Source: a virus. From it: a DNA stretch of 19,317 nucleotides. This document shows, one piece after another, positions 2,380-9,168 of this stretch (its first letter is position 1; each line of letters opens with the position of its first letter). Made by a program: the position numbers and the translations under genes. The notes beneath the pieces were generated by a model. It searched no databases, was not told where the DNA came from, and was given only the letters and a program-made list of their open reading frames with translations. The stretch is from the UHGV virus genome UHGV-1601204; one strand, 5' to 3'.

Positions 2380-3171
2380 ATGAGCGAGAAATTAAAGATA
2401 GTCTATCGCCCATTACAAGAATTGTCACCGTATGCGCACAACGCCAGGACGCACAGTACTGAGCAGGTGGCACAACTGGTAGAAAGTATTAAGCAATTCG
2501 GCTGGACTAATCCGGTGCTGATTGACGAAAAGGGCGAAATTATTGCGGGTCACGGTCGTGTTATGGCGGCTGAAATGCTCAAAATGGATTCTGTTCCGGT
2601 CATTGTTCTGTCTGGCCTGACGGATGAGCAGAAAAAGGCGTACCGCCTGGCAGATAATCGCCTGCCGATGAATGCTGGCTGGGATGAAGATCTGTTGCGG
2701 ATGGAGCTGTCGGACCTAATCAATGCTGATTTTGATGTCTCCCTGACAGGCTTCATCCCGACAGAAATTGATGAACTGTTGACGGATGTTTTGCCCGGTA
2801 CAGGAAATGAGGAGGAGCCGTATACGACGAAAATTGATACGCCTGTTTATGAGCCGTCGGGCGGTAAACCGGATATCAGTGAACTGTACGACGATACGAA
2901 AACTCAGGAGCTGATCAGCCGGATACGTTCGGCGTCCCTTGAGCCTGATATTGAGAAATTCCTCCTGTGTGCGGCAGAACGTCACACGGTGTTTAATTTC
3001 AGCAGAATTGCGGACTATTACGCTCACGCCCCCTCTGAAATTCAGTGTTTTTTCGAGGAGTCGGCGCTGGTGATCATTGATTATCAGCAGGCTATTGAAA
3101 ATGGATTTGTCCGGATGACGCAGCGCATGGTGGAGATCATGCATGGTGGTGAGGAGGAGGAATATGCGTGA
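2380..3171 (+). CDS. ParB-like nuclease domain (ParB/Srx fold) protein, function unknown
   Basis: 263-aa ORF. N-terminal region resembles the ParB N-terminal domain: LSPYAHNARTHSTEQVAQLVESIKQFGWTNPVLIDEKGEIIAGHGRVMAA with a GxGR-type motif. The acidic C-terminal half is unassigned. SD-like AAGG upstream. Position matches ynaK downstream of trkG in Rac, as I recall. Confidence 0.7.
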   Translation: MSEKLKIVYRPLQELSPYAHNARTHSTEQVAQLVESIKQFGWTNPVLIDEKGEIIAGHGRVMAAEMLKMDSVPVIVLSGLTDEQKKAYRLADNRLPMNAGWDEDLLRMELSDLINADFDVSLTGFIPTEIDELLTDVLPGTGNEEEPYTTKIDTPVYEPSGGKPDISELYDDTKTQELISRIRSASLEPDIEKFLLCAAERHTVFNFSRIADYYAHAPSEIQCFFEESALVIIDYQQAIENGFVRMTQRMVEIMHGGEEEEYA

Positions 3172-4096
3172 TGATTTTTGCGCCTTTATTCTGACTCACG
3201 GGCGACCGGACAAAGTTCTGACTTACCGGACGTTGCGTCGTGCTGGCTATACCGGGAAAATTTTTATCGTTGTTGATGATGAAGATAAGACACGGCATCA
3301 GTACATGGCTGAATTTGGTGAACAGGTGCTGGTGTTTTCCAAAGCCGATATCGCCAGTCGTTTTGACGAAGCCGATAATTTCTGTGACCGCCGCTCAATT
3401 TTTTACGCCCGTAATGCCTGTTTCGACCTGGCAAAACTGGTCGGGTGTAAATACTTCATTCAGCTCGATGATGATTATCACGAGTTCCAGTTTCGGGTGG
3501 ATCGCAACTATGACCAGGCCTATTTTCCGATAAGGAAACTGGATGCGATCCTTTCTGAAATGCTGGCGTACTACGAATCAATACCTGCTCTTTCCATCGC
3601 TATGTCGCAGGGCGGGGATTTTCTTGGTGACAATGGCGGCCATGCTTCGTGGGTGAAACGCAAGGCAATGAACAGCTTTATCTGTTCGGTTGATCGACCG
3701 TTCTCATTCATGGGGCGCATTAACGAGGATGTGAATACGTACACGAATCTCGGTCGCTGTGGTGAATTGTTTATGACGATCGGTGCTGTCCAGTTAGGGC
3801 AGAAACAGACGCAGAAAAACAGCGGCGGAATGACCGAGCTGTATCTGGATTCCGGAACCTACGTTAAAAGTTTTTACTCCGTCATGTATGCGCCGTCGTG
3901 CGTAAAAATCTCACTGATGGGTGCCAGCCATAAACGCATTCACCATCAGGTCACCTGGAACAACGCTGCAGTAAAAATCCTTCACGAAAAATACAGGAAG
4001 AAGACACCCTGCATATCAATGGGGGTGACAAATGATTCCGTATTCGAAAGTCGAGTCTCTGGCAGCGTGCCGGATGACTGCACAACAAATCGCTGA
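3164..4096 (+). CDS. Hypothetical protein with DxD-type acidic motifs; possible nucleotide-sugar (GT-A-like) transferase, unverified
   Basis: 310 aa from ATG 3164, preceded by a strong SD (GAGGAGGAGG, 3151-3160); the track's 3143 start is less likely. Start overlaps the ParB-like stop (ATGCGTGA), suggesting translational coupling. Motifs: hydrophobic strand then acidic cluster (KIFIVVDDED; YFIQLDDDYHEF) and a C-terminal His cluster (HKRIHH). The fold assignment is my inference only. Confidence 0.6.
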   Translation: MRDDFCAFILTHGRPDKVLTYRTLRRAGYTGKIFIVVDDEDKTRHQYMAEFGEQVLVFSKADIASRFDEADNFCDRRSIFYARNACFDLAKLVGCKYFIQLDDDYHEFQFRVDRNYDQAYFPIRKLDAILSEMLAYYESIPALSIAMSQGGDFLGDNGGHASWVKRKAMNSFICSVDRPFSFMGRINEDVNTYTNLGRCGELFMTIGAVQLGQKQTQKNSGGMTELYLDSGTYVKSFYSVMYAPSCVKISLMGASHKRIHHQVTWNNAAVKILHEKYRKKTPCISMGVTNDSVFESRVSGSVPDDCTTNR

Positions 4097-4283
4097 CGTT
4101 CTGGATGTTGATCTGAACCGACTGAAAGAAAATCGGGAAGCAATGACAGATTTTTATGCGGCCATCCGTAAGGGCAGAGCGAAAGGTGAAGCCGAGTTAC
4201 GAGCGGCATTGTTTAAGCTTGCCAGAAAAGGGGATGCCTTTGCTCTGCGCGAACTACTCAGGGTGGATAAAAATCAGGACTAA
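4032..4283 (+). CDS. Small hypothetical protein, putative helix-turn-helix DNA-binding protein upstream of terS
   Basis: 83-aa ORF with SD-like GGGGGTGA (4021-4028) just before ATG 4032. Basic helical C-terminus (AAIRKGRAKGEAELRAALFKLARKGDAFALRELL). Overlaps the upstream gene by 65 nt, so the true start could be internal (for example ATG 4074). Confidence 0.5.
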   Translation: MIPYSKVESLAACRMTAQQIADVLDVDLNRLKENREAMTDFYAAIRKGRAKGEAELRAALFKLARKGDAFALRELLRVDKNQD

Positions 4284-4286
4284 CTG

Positions 4287-5381
4287 ATGAGCAGACCGGA
4301 CTGGGGGGCGTTGCAGCAGGAGTATATTGCTGAATACACCCGCTCCGGTATATCTCCGGTGGCATGGTGTGAAGCAAGGGGACTGAATTACGCAACAGCC
4401 CGTCGTTACATCAAAAAAACTCCGAAAAATGCGCAGACAGAAATGTGCAAAACTGCGCAAAAAAGTGCGCAGAAAAAATCTGCGCAGACTGCACAAAAGC
4501 GGAACGAAAAATCTCAGGAAAAAAAGCCAGTATTCGATGCGGGCCTGAATGAGGGCGACGCGGAGGAATTTTCGTTCTGTCCCGATGAATTCGGCATTTC
4601 TGACCAGCAGGCTAAGTTTGCGATGCTTGTTGCTCAGGGTAAAAAGCCGACAGAGGCGTACCGACTAGCCGGTTATGAGGGGCAAGGTGCGACAGCTAAT
4701 AGCAACGCCAGTCGTATGCTTAGAAATGCCAGGGTTTTTCGCGCTATCAGCTACTTCCGCAATCAGTACCAGAAACGCTATTCCGCAGACCTGGATTTAC
4801 TAGTGAGTCAGTTGATGGCCATTGTCCTGGCCGACCCCAATCAGCTTGCACAATTTCGCCGTGTTAACTGCCGTTATTGCTGGGGCGAGAATCATCTCTA
4901 CCAGTGGCGCGATATAGCAGAATTCGACAAGGCAGCGGCGCAGGCTTCCAGAGATGGCAAGCCCGAACCGGAATATGGAGGCCTCGGCTTTGTTGATAAC
5001 GCCATACCCAATCCGGACTGCCCGAAGTGCTGCGGTGAGGGAACGGGACAGCTTTATATGGCTGATACCACTCTGCTTGATGGGGATGCGCGGCAATTAT
5101 ATGCAGGGGCAAAATTCGGAAAATTCGGCGTTGAGATCCTGCTGGAGGATAAGGCTGCCGCCCGGCGTGAATTGTTGCGTTTGCTTTCTGCTGGCGGGGC
5201 TTTATGTGCAGATAAGCGGCTACAGGAACTGGAAATTGAACGGCGCAGAATGGAAAACCAGAAGCTGCGCAAAGAGATCGAAACGGTGGAAGATAATGAA
5301 CATCCCCAGCCTGTGGCGATCAATATTAATGTGGTTGATGCCAGAGTAAGGAGTGATGAAGATGATCTCTCCGACGCTTAA
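4287..5381 (+). CDS. terS: Terminase small subunit (TerS), Terminase_2-like
   Basis: 364 aa directly upstream of, and overlapping, the large terminase. N-terminal HTH-like segment (ISPVAWCEARGLNYATARRYIKK), then a low-complexity K/A/Q linker, then a region resembling the Terminase_2 small-subunit domain (AKFAMLVAQGKKPTEAYRLAGYEGQGATANSNASRMLRNARVFRAISYF). C-terminal Cys cluster and coiled coil. Confidence 0.8.
   Translation: MSRPDWGALQQEYIAEYTRSGISPVAWCEARGLNYATARRYIKKTPKNAQTEMCKTAQKSAQKKSAQTAQKRNEKSQEKKPVFDAGLNEGDAEEFSFCPDEFGISDQQAKFAMLVAQGKKPTEAYRLAGYEGQGATANSNASRMLRNARVFRAISYFRNQYQKRYSADLDLLVSQLMAIVLADPNQLAQFRRVNCRYCWGENHLYQWRDIAEFDKAAAQASRDGKPEPEYGGLGFVDNAIPNPDCPKCCGEGTGQLYMADTTLLDGDARQLYAGAKFGKFGVEILLEDKAAARRELLRLLSAGGALCADKRLQELEIERRRMENQKLRKEIETVEDNEHPQPVAININVVDARVRSDEDDLSDA
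4428..4500 (+). repeat. Array of TGCGCA-core direct repeats inside terS; candidate pac / TerS recognition site
   Basis: Exact TGCGCA at 4430, 4454, 4466 and 4481, plus variants TGTGCA (4444) and TGCACA (4490), most followed by A-runs. Spacing 9-15 bp. Encodes the linker KNAQTEMCKTAQKSAQKKSAQTAQKR. Confidence 0.4.
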
Positions 5382-6663
5382 TGTGCCTCAGGCGCGATTT
5401 CTTTCAATGCCCCATAAATTTAAAGCCTATATTGCTGGTTTTGGCTCGGGCAAAACATGGGTTGGGTGTGGCGGCATATGCAAGGGGATTTGGGAGCATC
5501 CAGGTATAAATCAGGGATATTTTGCGCCAACGTATCCCCAAATTCGCGATATTTTTTACCCTACAGTGGAAGAAGTTGCTGCTGACTGGGGATTGAACGT
5601 AAAAATTAATGAGGGAAATAAAGAGGTTCACTTTTATTACGGACGCCAGTATCGGGGAACCACTATCTGCAGATCGATGGAGAAGCCACAAACGATCGTC
5701 GGTTTCAAAATTGGTAATGCGTTGGTGGATGAACTGGACATTTTGCCGAAGGAAAAAGCCAGAACGGCGTGGCGCAAGATAATTGCACGTATGCGTTATA
5801 AGATTGATGGACTTCGCAACGGTATTGACGTTACAACCACGCCGGAAGGATTCAAATTTGTCTACGAGCAGTTTGTTAAAGCCGTGCGTGAAAAAACAGA
5901 GCTGGCCTCACTGTATGGTCTGGTGCAGGCATCTACTTTCGATAATGAAAAGAACCTGCCAGCAGATTACATTCCTTCGCTTCTTGAATCATACCCTCCA
6001 GAGCTGATTAAAGCCTATCTTCGAGGACAGTTTACTAACCTGACAAGTGGTACTGTTTACCATCAGTTTGACCGGAAACTGAATAATTGCGAAGAAGTGG
6101 AGCAGCCAGGGGAGCCGATTTATATTGGGATGGATTTTAACGTTGGAAAGATGGCGGGAATCGTCCATGTGCTGCGTTTGGGGCTTCCATGTGCGGTAAC
6201 TGAAATCATCAATGCCTACGATACGCCGGATATGATCCGCATCATTAAAGAACGCTTCTGGCTGTATGATGGGAATGATTACCGGAAAGTGAGGGAAATT
6301 TATATTTATCCAGATGCTTCCGGGGATTCCAGAAAATCAAGTAACGCAAGTACGACGGATATAGCCCAGCTTAAGCAGGCTGGTTTTAACGTTGTGGTGA
6401 ACAGCTCGAACCCGCCAGTAAAAGATCGCGTTAACTCAATGAATGCAATGTTCTGCAATGCCAATGGTGAGCGTCGCTATAAAGTTAATGTGAAGCGTTG
6501 CCCGTTATATGCCGAATCTCTGGAGCAACAGGTCTGGGATGAGAAGGGGGAGCCTGATAAAAAATCTGGCAATGATCACCCGAATGATGCCGGAGGTTAT
6601 TTCATCGTTAAGCAATTCCCTATTGTCAAACCGACCGGAAGAGTCACATCACTTCGGATTTAA
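5362..6663 (+). CDS. terL: Terminase large subunit (TerL), ATPase plus nuclease
   Basis: Walker A (AGFGSGKT), Walker B-like (ALVDELD), and C-terminal nuclease-type acidic motifs (IGMDFN, YPDASG, DHPNDAGG). Start chosen at ATG 5362, 8 nt after SD AAGGAG (5348-5353); the track's 5353 GTG is an alternative. Overlaps the terS end. Confidence 0.9.
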   Translation: MISPTLNVPQARFLSMPHKFKAYIAGFGSGKTWVGCGGICKGIWEHPGINQGYFAPTYPQIRDIFYPTVEEVAADWGLNVKINEGNKEVHFYYGRQYRGTTICRSMEKPQTIVGFKIGNALVDELDILPKEKARTAWRKIIARMRYKIDGLRNGIDVTTTPEGFKFVYEQFVKAVREKTELASLYGLVQASTFDNEKNLPADYIPSLLESYPPELIKAYLRGQFTNLTSGTVYHQFDRKLNNCEEVEQPGEPIYIGMDFNVGKMAGIVHVLRLGLPCAVTEIINAYDTPDMIRIIKERFWLYDGNDYRKVREIYIYPDASGDSRKSSNASTTDIAQLKQAGFNVVVNSSNPPVKDRVNSMNAMFCNANGERRYKVNVKRCPLYAESLEQQVWDEKGEPDKKSGNDHPNDAGGYFIVKQFPIVKPTGRVTSLRI

Positions 6664-6665
6664 TT

Positions 6666-8072
6666 ATGGCTGATATATCAACACCCAACCTCGACTATAA
6701 CGATATGCTGGAGGCGTGGGATATTAACGACGCACTGATGGGCGGTACGCTTGAAATGCGCAGGCAGGGGGAAAATTATCTCCCAAAATGGCCTAACGAA
6801 GATGAAGACGCTTATAAAAAACGCCTGTCTGTGGCTACGCTACTTCCTGTGTATGAAGAAAGCATCAAGCAAAATATTGGGCGCATATTTGCAGAGCCGA
6901 CAGTATTGAGTGAGGAAACGCCGGCAAAAATCAGGGAATATGCAGAAAATATCGACATGGAGGGGAGCCGACTGGATGTGTGGGCGCAGCAATTTTTCAG
7001 CCTCGCATTTCAGTATGGTGTGGCACATGCGCTGGTGGACTATCCACGAACGGATATGAAAGAGATTCGGACAAAAGCCGATGAAAACGCGGCCGGTGGT
7101 CGTCCGTACGTTACGATGCTGAATCCACGCCAGGTTATTGGATGGAAATCGAAAGTTGAACAAGGGAAAGTTGTTCTCACTGATTTGCGTATAAAAGAGG
7201 TCATCATTATTGATGGTGATGATTTCGGGCAGAAGAAGGTGGAGCAGATCCGCCATATTATGCCCCGTCGAGTTGAAATTTATCGACGTAGCGAAGGCAC
7301 TAATGGCGAATCTGTCTGGACGCTTCATGAGTCATGGAATACCAGCCGTGATGATATTCCTCTGGTAACACTGTACACGAAGAAAACAGGATTTATGCGT
7401 GGTACACCGCCATTGCTTAATCTTGGCTTGCTGAATATCAAGCACTGGCAAAGCCAGAGCGAGCAGGACAATATTCTTCATGTTGCCCGCGTTCCATTGC
7501 TGGTGGCCTACGGGCTGGACAGGAATGAAGAACTGACGGTTGGTGCATCCACCGCTACGATTTTTGAGGACAGAACAAAAAATGGCCTCGAATATGTTGA
7601 ACATAGTGGCGCAGCGATAGAATCTGGCGAAACATCACTTGAGAAGCTGGAAAATCAGATGCGTCATGCCGGCGCTAAACTTCTGCGTGCTGAAAATACA
7701 TCCACCAAATCTGTTGATCAGACTAATGAAGAGCGAATGCAGGAAAACTCGCCGCTTTATACAATGGCGAACTCCCTCGAAGATGCCCTCGATAATATTC
7801 TCCAGATAATGGCGGAATGGATCGGAGAGAGTTGCGGTGGCAATGTGGATGTGCGCACTGAACTGGATGTATCTGCCCAGGTGTTTGACTCATCCTCCGC
7901 GCTGGCTGTTCAGTCATTGCGTCAGGGCGGTGATATACGTCAGATTGATGCGGTTCGGGTGTTGCAGGCGTTGAAATTTATCGATCAGGATTCCCGTCCA
8001 GAGGAAGTGATCGATGAATTAAAAAATCAGAGTGTAATGCTGATGGAAATCAATGATGCAAACCGTGAATGA
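6666..8072 (+). CDS. Portal protein
   Basis: 468-aa ORF immediately after TerL (stop TAA 6661-6663, ATG 6666), in the canonical portal position. Acidic C-terminus. Assigned by synteny and size plus family recollection; not searched. Confidence 0.75.
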   Translation: MADISTPNLDYNDMLEAWDINDALMGGTLEMRRQGENYLPKWPNEDEDAYKKRLSVATLLPVYEESIKQNIGRIFAEPTVLSEETPAKIREYAENIDMEGSRLDVWAQQFFSLAFQYGVAHALVDYPRTDMKEIRTKADENAAGGRPYVTMLNPRQVIGWKSKVEQGKVVLTDLRIKEVIIIDGDDFGQKKVEQIRHIMPRRVEIYRRSEGTNGESVWTLHESWNTSRDDIPLVTLYTKKTGFMRGTPPLLNLGLLNIKHWQSQSEQDNILHVARVPLLVAYGLDRNEELTVGASTATIFEDRTKNGLEYVEHSGAAIESGETSLEKLENQMRHAGAKLLRAENTSTKSVDQTNEERMQENSPLYTMANSLEDALDNILQIMAEWIGESCGGNVDVRTELDVSAQVFDSSSALAVQSLRQGGDIRQIDAVRVLQALKFIDQDSRPEEVIDELKNQSVMLMEINDANRE

Positions 8073-9168
8073 ACGGCTGCGTGATGAATCAATTGCTCAT
8101 GCAGTCTGGATATCCCGCTATAGCACTGGCGTGGCTGCCAGAATGGTGAAAATACTGAATGACAGCGATGCGGAACTTACTGCTCGCCTGCTGATAGCAC
8201 TGGACAGCCTCGATCCAGGTAGTTTTACCGTTAAGCGCCTGGAGTCACTTCTGGCGAGCGTCAGAGAGGTTAACCGCACTGCTATTAACAGCATGTTTAC
8301 CAGTCTCTCCGGAGAGCTGAACGAGCTGGCAATTTATGAGGCTGGTTATCAGTTAAGTCTGTTTGATTCTATGCTACCTGATTTTGTTGCTGATGTTCAC
8401 CCTCTGGTTGGTATCTCTCCTGATGCACTTTATGCCGCTGCAATGGCGCGACCATTCCAGGGACGACTGCTCAGTGAGTGGGCCTCAGATCTTGAAGCGG
8501 ATCGGCTCAGACGCATAACAAATACAGTGCGTCAGGGTTTTTTGCTGGGGGATACCAATGAGCAGATCGCAAGAAAAATTCGGGGACATGTCAGTAAGGG
8601 ATTTCAGGATGGTGCATTGCAGATGAGCCGGGCTAATGCGGCCAGCATTGCAAAAACAGCGGTTGGACATCTTGCTGCTACTGCCCGTGAGAGTTTTGCC
8701 AGCGCGAATAATGATTTGATTAAGGGTAAGCAATGGTTATCAACGCTTGATAATCGTACTACGCCACAATGTCGAATCAGGGATCGCCTCAAATATACGC
8801 TGAATAATAAACCTGTAGGTCACAGCGTGCCTTATTTGCAGGGGCCGGGAAAAATTCATTTCTGCTGCCGCTCAACGGAAACGTTCATTCTGAAATCAGC
8901 GAAGGAACTGGGTATTGATGTTCGCGATATTTCCCCGGCTGAGCGGGCCAGCATGGATGGCGTGGTGGCCGGAGATACAACCTACAGGGAATGGTTTTTG
9001 CGTCAGCCTTACACCAGACAAAAACAGATTGTGGGGGAAACCCGAGCAAAGCTGATTCGGGATGGTGGTATGTCGCCAGATGAATTTTACACCGATAAAG
9101 GCGAATGGCTGACGCTGAAGCAGCTCCGTGAGCGTGATGCACAGGTATTCAGAAAAGCAGGGATTTAA
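8053..9168 (+). CDS. Head morphogenesis / minor head protein (Mu F / SPP1 gp7-like)
   Basis: 371-aa ORF overlapping the portal end by 20 nt, in the position usually held by the F-like minor head protein. Followed by a clear intrinsic terminator. Confidence 0.6.
   Translation: MMQTVNERLRDESIAHAVWISRYSTGVAARMVKILNDSDAELTARLLIALDSLDPGSFTVKRLESLLASVREVNRTAINSMFTSLSGELNELAIYEAGYQLSLFDSMLPDFVADVHPLVGISPDALYAAAMARPFQGRLLSEWASDLEADRLRRITNTVRQGFLLGDTNEQIARKIRGHVSKGFQDGALQMSRANAASIAKTAVGHLAATARESFASANNDLIKGKQWLSTLDNRTTPQCRIRDRLKYTLNNKPVGHSVPYLQGPGKIHFCCRSTETFILKSAKELGIDVRDISPAERASMDGVVAGDTTYREWFLRQPYTRQKQIVGETRAKLIRDGGMSPDEFYTDKGEWLTLKQLRERDAQVFRKAGI

Follow-up and report, generated by a model that had tools for sequence, protein, structure and literature searches.

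The 19,317-nt stretch of viral DNA analyzed in this study (UHGV virus genome UHGV-1601204, hereafter the window) is the late part of a lambdoid, Rac-like E. coli prophage. Its packaging genes include terS (4287–5381, + strand), encoding a small terminase subunit of 364 residues, and terL (5353–6663, + strand), encoding the large terminase subunit with ATPase and nuclease. TerS matches Pfam PF03592 (Terminase_2) at residues 122–321, scoring 35.6 bits (cut-off, 26.1), and matches phrog_51 over its full length (E 6e-76); RefSeq names it 'terminase small subunit'. TerL matches Pfam Terminase_6N/6C. An original prediction, made from the sequence alone, had proposed a cluster of TGCGCA repeats inside terS as a candidate pac site and had described the terminase as unlike lambda Nu1/A. 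The family assignments agree with it on both points: the repeats lie within a Terminase_2 small terminase gene, and neither a lambda-type Nu1 TerS nor a gpA TerL was found.

The array comprises six hexamers of the form TGNNCA with the consensus TGCGCA, spans 66 bp (4430–4495; terS nt 144–209), and is here proposed as the TerS-recognition part of pac. The four exact and two degenerate copies of the original prediction were confirmed in position and sequence. Hexamer 1 (TGCGCA, 4430–4435) lies in AAT GCG CAG, encoding N-A-Q, and is kept in all close relatives. Similarly, hexamers 3 (TGCGCA, 4454–4459; ACT GCG CAA, T-A-Q), 4 (TGCGCA, 4466–4471; AGT GCG CAG, S-A-Q), and 5 (TGCGCA, 4481–4486; TCT GCG CAG, S-A-Q) are exact, and all exact copies of the window read xxT GCG CAR, encoding x-Ala-Gln. 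Hexamer 2 (TGTGCA, 4444–4449) occupies another reading frame as ATG TGC AAA (M-C-K) and is a single-base derivative, with the exact TGCGCA present in close relatives as ATG/GTG/TTG CGC AAA. Hexamer 6 (TGCACA, 4490–4495; ACT GCA CAA) is a synonymous GCG-to-GCA derivative of a TGCGCA present in many relatives. The ancestral array of the clade of the window had six exact copies, the second of which was already out of frame with the others. Additionally, hexamers 4 and 5 together form an 8-bp inverted repeat (TGCGCAGA / TCTGCGCA).

This clustering stands out within the window, which has ten TGCGCA copies in all, four of them within 57 bp. TGCGCA clusters reached at most two copies per 60 bp when the window was simulated 400 times with a first-order Markov model, and six TGYRCA within 70 bp occurred in a single simulation. 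The array was also recovered by Tandem Repeats Finder (TRF) and by a repeat finder, with periods of 12 and 36. The start-to-start spacings are 14, 10, 12, 15, and 9 bp, with a mean of 12.0 bp and a standard deviation of 2.3 bp, so that the spacing first described as roughly helical is only loosely so. The A-run said to follow each copy is present after most of them but not at 4430 and 4481, where GAC follows.

Eight A4–A7 tracts (4413–4526, + strand) are interleaved with the GC-core hexamers, and intrinsic curvature is predicted for this stretch. The array region is the densest cluster of tracts of at least four A residues in the window (eight in 130 bp, all on the + strand). Its predicted curvature lies at the 98th percentile of the window, an approximate figure that depends on the wedge parameters used. 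Just 3′ of the array, a 12-nt inverted repeat (4502–4513 / 4566–4577; GAACGAAAAATC / GAATTTTCGTTC) is complementary at 11 of 12 positions with 52 nt between its arms, and may be part of a cleavage region or may be due to chance. In a few relatives (L104 at ~2640, IMG/VR 2529292883_000002; L127 and L128), 1-base changes in the length of A-runs by the hexamers shift the terS frame, possibly owing to sequencing errors or to slippage-prone homopolymers. Full-text literature searches returned no description of this TGCGCA array or of the pac site of a Rac-like phage.

The array-coding DNA corresponds to the linker between two domains of TerS. The protein consists of an N-terminal helix-turn-helix (HTH) of about 44 residues (MSRPDWGALQQEYIAEYTRSGISPVAWCEARGLNYATARRYIKK), a K/A/Q-rich linker (residues 45–90), the Terminase_2 core, and a coiled C-terminal tail. 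The HTH, which is PacA-like, is encoded at 4287–4418 (+ strand; residues 1–44) and contains ATARRYIKK as its putative recognition helix. An AlphaFold2 (AF2) model places helices at residues 6–20, 24–30, and 35–42 of the N-terminal domain with low confidence, and the predicted local distance difference test (pLDDT) score of the linker is below 50 throughout. A search of PDB sequences with TerS gave one marginal match, to the Pam5 TerS (E 0.15). Within the core, C195, C198, C245, and C248 (window 4869–5036) form the pairs CRYCWG and CP(K/R)C, which are invariant in all full-length homologs. They point to a possible zinc-ribbon insertion in this core, a feature unusual among small terminases.

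As an alternative, the original prediction had allowed that the repeats just reflect the K/A/Q-rich linker that they encode. On this reading, the linker is a (T/S)-A-Q-K repeat, identical codons recur in it through E. coli codon preference, and the DNA is without function of its own. The shared frame of the four exact window copies, each encoding x-A-Q, is in line with such a by-product of the protein, as is the AQ-rich linker peptide, still recognizable in distant homologs. We resampled synonymous codons with the peptide fixed, using the codon usage of these genes. For the window peptide, 0.34 TGCGCA copies were expected against the 4 observed, and none of 2000 resamples reached 4. For 67 unique relatives, 0.50 copies were expected against 4.9 observed, with 7 of 134,000 resamples reaching the observed count. 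Furthermore, with a linker pLDDT below 50, the AF2 model gives no sign of a structured, constrained peptide.

More distant homologs were drawn from Klebsiella, Enterobacter, Citrobacter, Raoultella, Leclercia, Providencia, Serratia, Buttiauxella, Pantoea, and others. About 35 homologs from other genera, with 38–55% protein identity, carry three to six exact TGCGCA at the same gene position. Among them the hexamer is encoded in three reading frames: as x-A-Q in ACT GCG CAA, as L/V/M-R-T/N/S/I in CTG/GTG/ATG/TTG CGC ACT/AAT/AGT/ATT, and as C-A in TGC GCA. The residues flanking the hexamer vary (T/S/N/I/F; L/V/M), and the hexamer is preserved every time. In particular, the residue before Ala changes among T, S, N, I, and F, while its codon always ends in T.

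The same pattern is seen in nucleotide identities. Hexamer positions average 0.94 pairwise identity across ten lineages whose HTH-coding DNA is less than 90% identical. The average drops to 0.68 for the rest of the linker and to 0.58 for third codon positions of the adjacent HTH. Third positions are conserved at 0.95 inside the hexamers versus 0.70 outside them. Within the clade of the window (52 unique terS), third-position diversity reaches its minimum of 0.018 at 4422–4466, where, against the usual pattern, non-third positions vary more. The prediction had named homologous linkers written in unrelated codons, with no TGCGCA periodicity, as counter-evidence; we looked for them and did not find them.

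The same identities bear on recent neutral duplication, in which slippage of a 12-nt unit would have produced copies that have not yet diverged. The TRF periods of 12 and 36 would suit this origin, and close relatives differ in copy number (four to six) by unit-sized indels (L093, L094, and L122). The hexamers nevertheless remain 94% identical across genera whose adjacent HTH synonymous sites have fallen to 58%, and the spacers between hexamers differ between clades in both length and sequence. Because of the codon resampling, the use of three frames, and the deep conservation of the hexamers, we reject the protein-only and the recent-duplication explanations; the former is highly improbable, and the latter scarcely credible. 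Collectively, the hexamers are, as judged from these sequence comparisons, maintained by selection on DNA and not on protein, and the check for conservation at the DNA level beyond what the protein needs came out in favor of a DNA function.

A precedent for such a site, absent from the original prediction, comes from the N-terminal domain of TerS. The first 80 residues match phrog_1711, the P1 PacA family (E 1.7e-5), and phrog_370 (E 7.6e-16), and P1 PacA itself matches phrog_370 (E 1.9e-4). When a profile of 15 N-terminal domains was compared with PacA residues 1–64 by hhalign, columns 5–44 aligned on residues 2–41 with a probability of 89% (E 2e-6), and ATARRYIKK was set opposite NTARRYLRA. 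The N-terminal HTH of TerS is thus a remote homolog of the PacA N-terminus. The remainder of TerS, unlike P1, is a Terminase_2 core and is not PacA-like. TerS is thus chimeric, with a PacA-like HTH ahead of a core from another family, and the DNA-recognition module is apparently all that P1 and this terminase have in common.

Within this group of phages, P1 alone has a known pac site. It occupies about 161 bp in pacA, where seven TGATCA/G hexamers, split between two clusters, surround the cleavage site (PMC10028697; PMC11260489), and synonymous recoding of these hexamers lowers packaging (PMC10028697). The annotated P1 record places them at pacA nt 193–232 and 323–379, on either side of the mapped cuts at nt ~275–285, and they fall in two reading frames. 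As in P1, the array of the window is within the small terminase gene and directly 3′ of the homologous N-terminal HTH segment, in a place equivalent to HEX4. Moreover, both sites are built from clustered palindromic hexamers of TGNNCA form in more than one frame, and the two variants of the window are TGNNCA as well. A bipartite layout is found in relatives of the Klebsiella/Enterobacter type, which carry a second cluster of two or three TGCGCA in the Terminase_2 core, about 150 bp 3′ of the first array. This cluster (L003 1860–1903, L005 1848–1891, and about 20 others; terS nt ~347–390) reads V-A-Q, I-A-Q, and V/M-R-T in two frames. The resulting 6+3 layout of the Klebsiella type resembles the 4+3 layout of P1, whereas the clade of the window has a different core sequence there, without the cluster.

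A blind scan of IMG/VR for three close TGCGCA copies matched at least 120 contigs. Of the 120 listed, 75 place the array after a PacA-like N-terminus in terS, and at least nine more place it after a different N-terminal HTH in a gene resembling terS; the other listed contigs have unrelated repeats in tandem, most of them in GC-rich DNA. One contig (L138; IMG/VR 3300044633_001177) carries near-identical intergenic triplets TGCGCA-N9-TGCGCA-N7-TGCGCA at 4593–4626 and 5463–5496, each just 5′ of an open reading frame (ORF) start. These triplets look like operators for some unrelated regulator; TGCGCA arrays therefore also occur outside terS.

TerS proteins with the same core and other N-terminal types show no TGCGCA. 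Instead, each carries its own motif of 6–8 bp in three to six copies at the linker position (terS nt ~90–300). The motif is TGCGAAT in Yersinia phages with the N-terminal type ...AKRYIKI, where some copies form TGCGAATTCGCA; GTGGAAAC in three copies in Serratia and an Actinobacillus-phage record; GGGGCAAA in four copies in Erwinia and Izhakiella; GGTTCGCA/TGCGAACC in Yersinia; and ATCGCGAA in one viral contig. These motifs were read at L004 1630–1680 and at L134/L135, L014/L016, L015/L036, L041/L042, L008, and L131. In L008, the core of the window is shared at 93% nucleotide identity from ~4581 on, and the HTH and the array are both different. In Escherichia phage Rac-SA53 (L002 2990–3060, KU052037), annotated as 'gpO-terS fusion by deletion', the junction lies inside the array and the HTH is lost; of the five hexamers left, three carry mutations (TTCGCA, TGCGCT, and TGCCCA). 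This decay fits relaxed selection after the loss of the HTH, in a single case. Collectively, these comparisons suggest that the HTH and its own array behave as one cassette.

Module exchange itself offers another reading of these junctions, namely that short conserved repeats at the HTH/core boundary serve as a recombination linker among lambdoid phages. The deletion junction of Rac-SA53 falls inside the array, the module switch of L008 lies about 90 bp 3′ of it, and the same HTH and array occur with two types of core, which share about 40% identity. Units of 6 bp are nevertheless too short for homologous recombination, the exchanges keep the HTH and array together with no break between them, and a different motif for each HTH type is left unexplained. 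We regard the recombination linker as improbable.

The motifs of sister lineages also bear on a different cis-acting role, either as an operator at which TerS or another protein regulates the late genes or terS, or as an mRNA structure in which the palindromic hexamers pair and which tunes TerS translation. The RNA of 4405–4530 folds better than shuffled sequences (z = -3.8), with an 8-bp stem given by hexamers 4 and 5, and binding of the SPP1 TerS at pac has been proposed to act also as a toggle for transcription versus packaging (PMC4737164). A low folding energy is nonetheless expected of any set of palindromic repeats, and the spacing and pairing partners of the hexamers vary between clades. 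Several of the sister-lineage motifs are direct non-palindromic repeats, such as the triple and quadruple motifs above, which are unable to form hairpins and thus argue against an RNA-hairpin function. In addition, a scan of 3900–5500 gave no Rfam family. A regulatory function would be compatible with pac function and possibly additional to it; as the explanation of the array in its own right, a cis role of this kind seems unlikely.

Other characterized pac sites resemble the array in part. The TerS core belongs to the same family, Terminase_2, as that of the Bacillus phage SPP1/SF6 (TerS G1P), and the 5′ end of terS has, in SPP1/SF6 as here, short direct repeats together with A/T runs that alternate with GC steps. 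In contrast, the boxes of SPP1 (pacL-pacC-pacR) differ in sequence and lie partly 5′ of gene 1, and the N-terminal domain of TerS here is PacA-like. In Terminase_2 TerS, neighboring HTHs sit roughly one helical turn from each other around a ring of about 300 Å circumference, and bent pac DNA is thought to wrap this ring (PMC4737164). The alternation of A-tracts and GC steps and the predicted curvature of the array would fit this wrap-around model. As in the Salmonella phage P22, the site would be embedded in the terS reading frame (gene 3 in P22) of a lambdoid headful phage, and the P22 pac is attenuated by wobble-position mutations (PMC11260489). Unlike the array, the P22 pac is a single asymmetric, non-repeated site of about 22 bp without a hexamer array, and its TerS belongs to a different family.

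The packaging mode was assessed from TerL and its neighbors. By pairwise similarity, the closest characterized relatives of TerL are those of Jerseyvirus, Kagunavirus, and Dhillonvirus, with 40–51% identity, and Jerseyviruses have been assigned headful, pac-initiated packaging by PhageTerm and pulsed-field gel electrophoresis (PMC10783031). A PDB sequence search with TerL gave no match. Downstream of terL lie a portal gene (DUF4055; 6666–8072, + strand) and a head-morphogenesis gene of the Mu F / SPP1 gp7-like type (8053–9168, + strand), which provide a head and packaging module context. Headful TerL relatives, the portal and MuF genes, and the absence of a lambda-type terminase together fit a putative headful packaging context.

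In the reading that we favor, the array is probably the TerS-recognition part of a predicted pac site organized like the P1 pac. An oligomeric TerS would present its HTH domains around a ring, each contacting one hexamer, at about one hexamer per 12 bp. The six hexamers interleaved with A4–A7 tracts would provide about 65 bp of intrinsically curved DNA that wraps the TerS ring. The complex of TerS and the array would then recruit TerL, which would cut near the array and start a unidirectional (rightward) series of headful packaging. The predicted class of the site is a P1-like, repeat-built pac within terS, distinguished by three-frame conservation, by the lack of methylation sites, and by the chimeric TerS. 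The candidate pac site of the original prediction is in this way upheld as a prediction.

Several observations weigh against this reading. The window has only four perfect copies among the six hexamers of its array. Its hexamer is TGCGCA and not the TGATCA of P1, with no GATC anywhere in 4405–4530. TGCGCA is a site for neither Dam nor Dcm. Lacking GATC, these hexamers cannot be subject to the Dam-methylation timing switch of P1. Unlike P1, with HEX4 and HEX3, the window has no second hexamer cluster within terS, even when copies with one mismatch are allowed. A consensus scan for the integration host factor (IHF) motif WATCAANNNNTTR found none near terS, the sole match of the window being at 8709, and BLASTP of TerL against P1 PacB gave no significant alignment. 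The AF2 model of TerS, built on a shallow alignment with a mean pLDDT of 51, lends weak support to the domain layout only. Moreover, the isolated DNA-binding domain of the SF6 TerS shows no sequence specificity for pac repeats (PMC4737164), so that a repeat is not necessarily contacted in a base-specific way; that one hexamer is so strictly conserved here argues for base-specific reading. The association of HTH and motif may likewise owe something to plain linkage, because the two are adjacent. Finally, ten 'phage' records (ON4706xx) that match the terS region at ≥99% identity were rejected as a source of genome termini, being in silico prophages predicted from clinical isolates. The start of one contig (L228), 18 nt 5′ of an array, was also rejected as a candidate DNA end, as the cut falls mid-contig.

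A broader rule can be drawn from the sister lineages, in which PacA-like or similar N-terminal HTHs would each read a lineage-specific motif of 6–8 bp repeated in their own linker DNA. The linker peptide would be largely a by-product, and the HTH and array would move as one specificity cassette. We consider the evidence for this general rule evenly balanced.

The terS region is widespread. Of 5,426 complete E. coli genomes, 849 contain the 1.35-kb region of terS at ≥80% coverage and 906 show any match to it, and this terS type is also spread across Enterobacteriaceae. In E. coli GN06156 (L001 8635–11302), a prophage otherwise 99.9% identical carries an ISEc31 insertion that splits the portal gene; this copy is therefore defective, although its terS and array are intact.

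The genes 5′ of terS complete the locus. A full-length potassium-transporter gene, trkG (767–2242), has lysis genes on its 5′ side and packaging genes on its 3′ side. The gene is placed likewise in the Rac prophage of E. coli K-12, which is without the genes from terS to the tail, so that the window displays an intact Rac-type late region. The next two genes encode a 263-residue protein with a ParB/Srx N-terminal domain (ParB_N; 2380–3171) and a 317-residue glycosyltransferase of the TET-associated type (Pfam TAGT; 3143–4096), labeled 'GREB1-related' by RefSeq in some genomes. Within this lambdoid late region, the two (2380–4096) may work as a pair in DNA modification or anti-restriction. The glycosyltransferase gene is overlapped at its end by a small ORF of 83 residues (4032–4283), which stops 4 nt 5′ of terS. 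Its product matches an internal part of phrog_309 ('terminase small subunit', E 8e-23), a shorter version is called a hypothetical protein by RefSeq, and the protein might have an accessory role in DNA binding or packaging.

Experimentally defined pac sites are known for few phages (P22, P1, SPP1, and a few others), and the pac of ES18, a well-studied transducer, is still unknown (PMC11260489). The predicted site is a directly testable target in a terS type found in 906 of 5,426 E. coli genomes. A predicted pac would further allow a forecast of where lateral transduction starts and of the chromosomal genes mobilized beside Rac-like prophages. The array also offers a natural case in which selection on a DNA site overrides protein coding in three frames. 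In addition, the P1 pacase, long viewed as isolated, would be tied to a large lambdoid terminase family through a shared DNA-recognition module. If the cassette rule is true, pac sites and packaging specificity would become predictable from sequence for thousands of uncharacterized prophages, and the direction and reach of lateral transduction would be predictable in turn.

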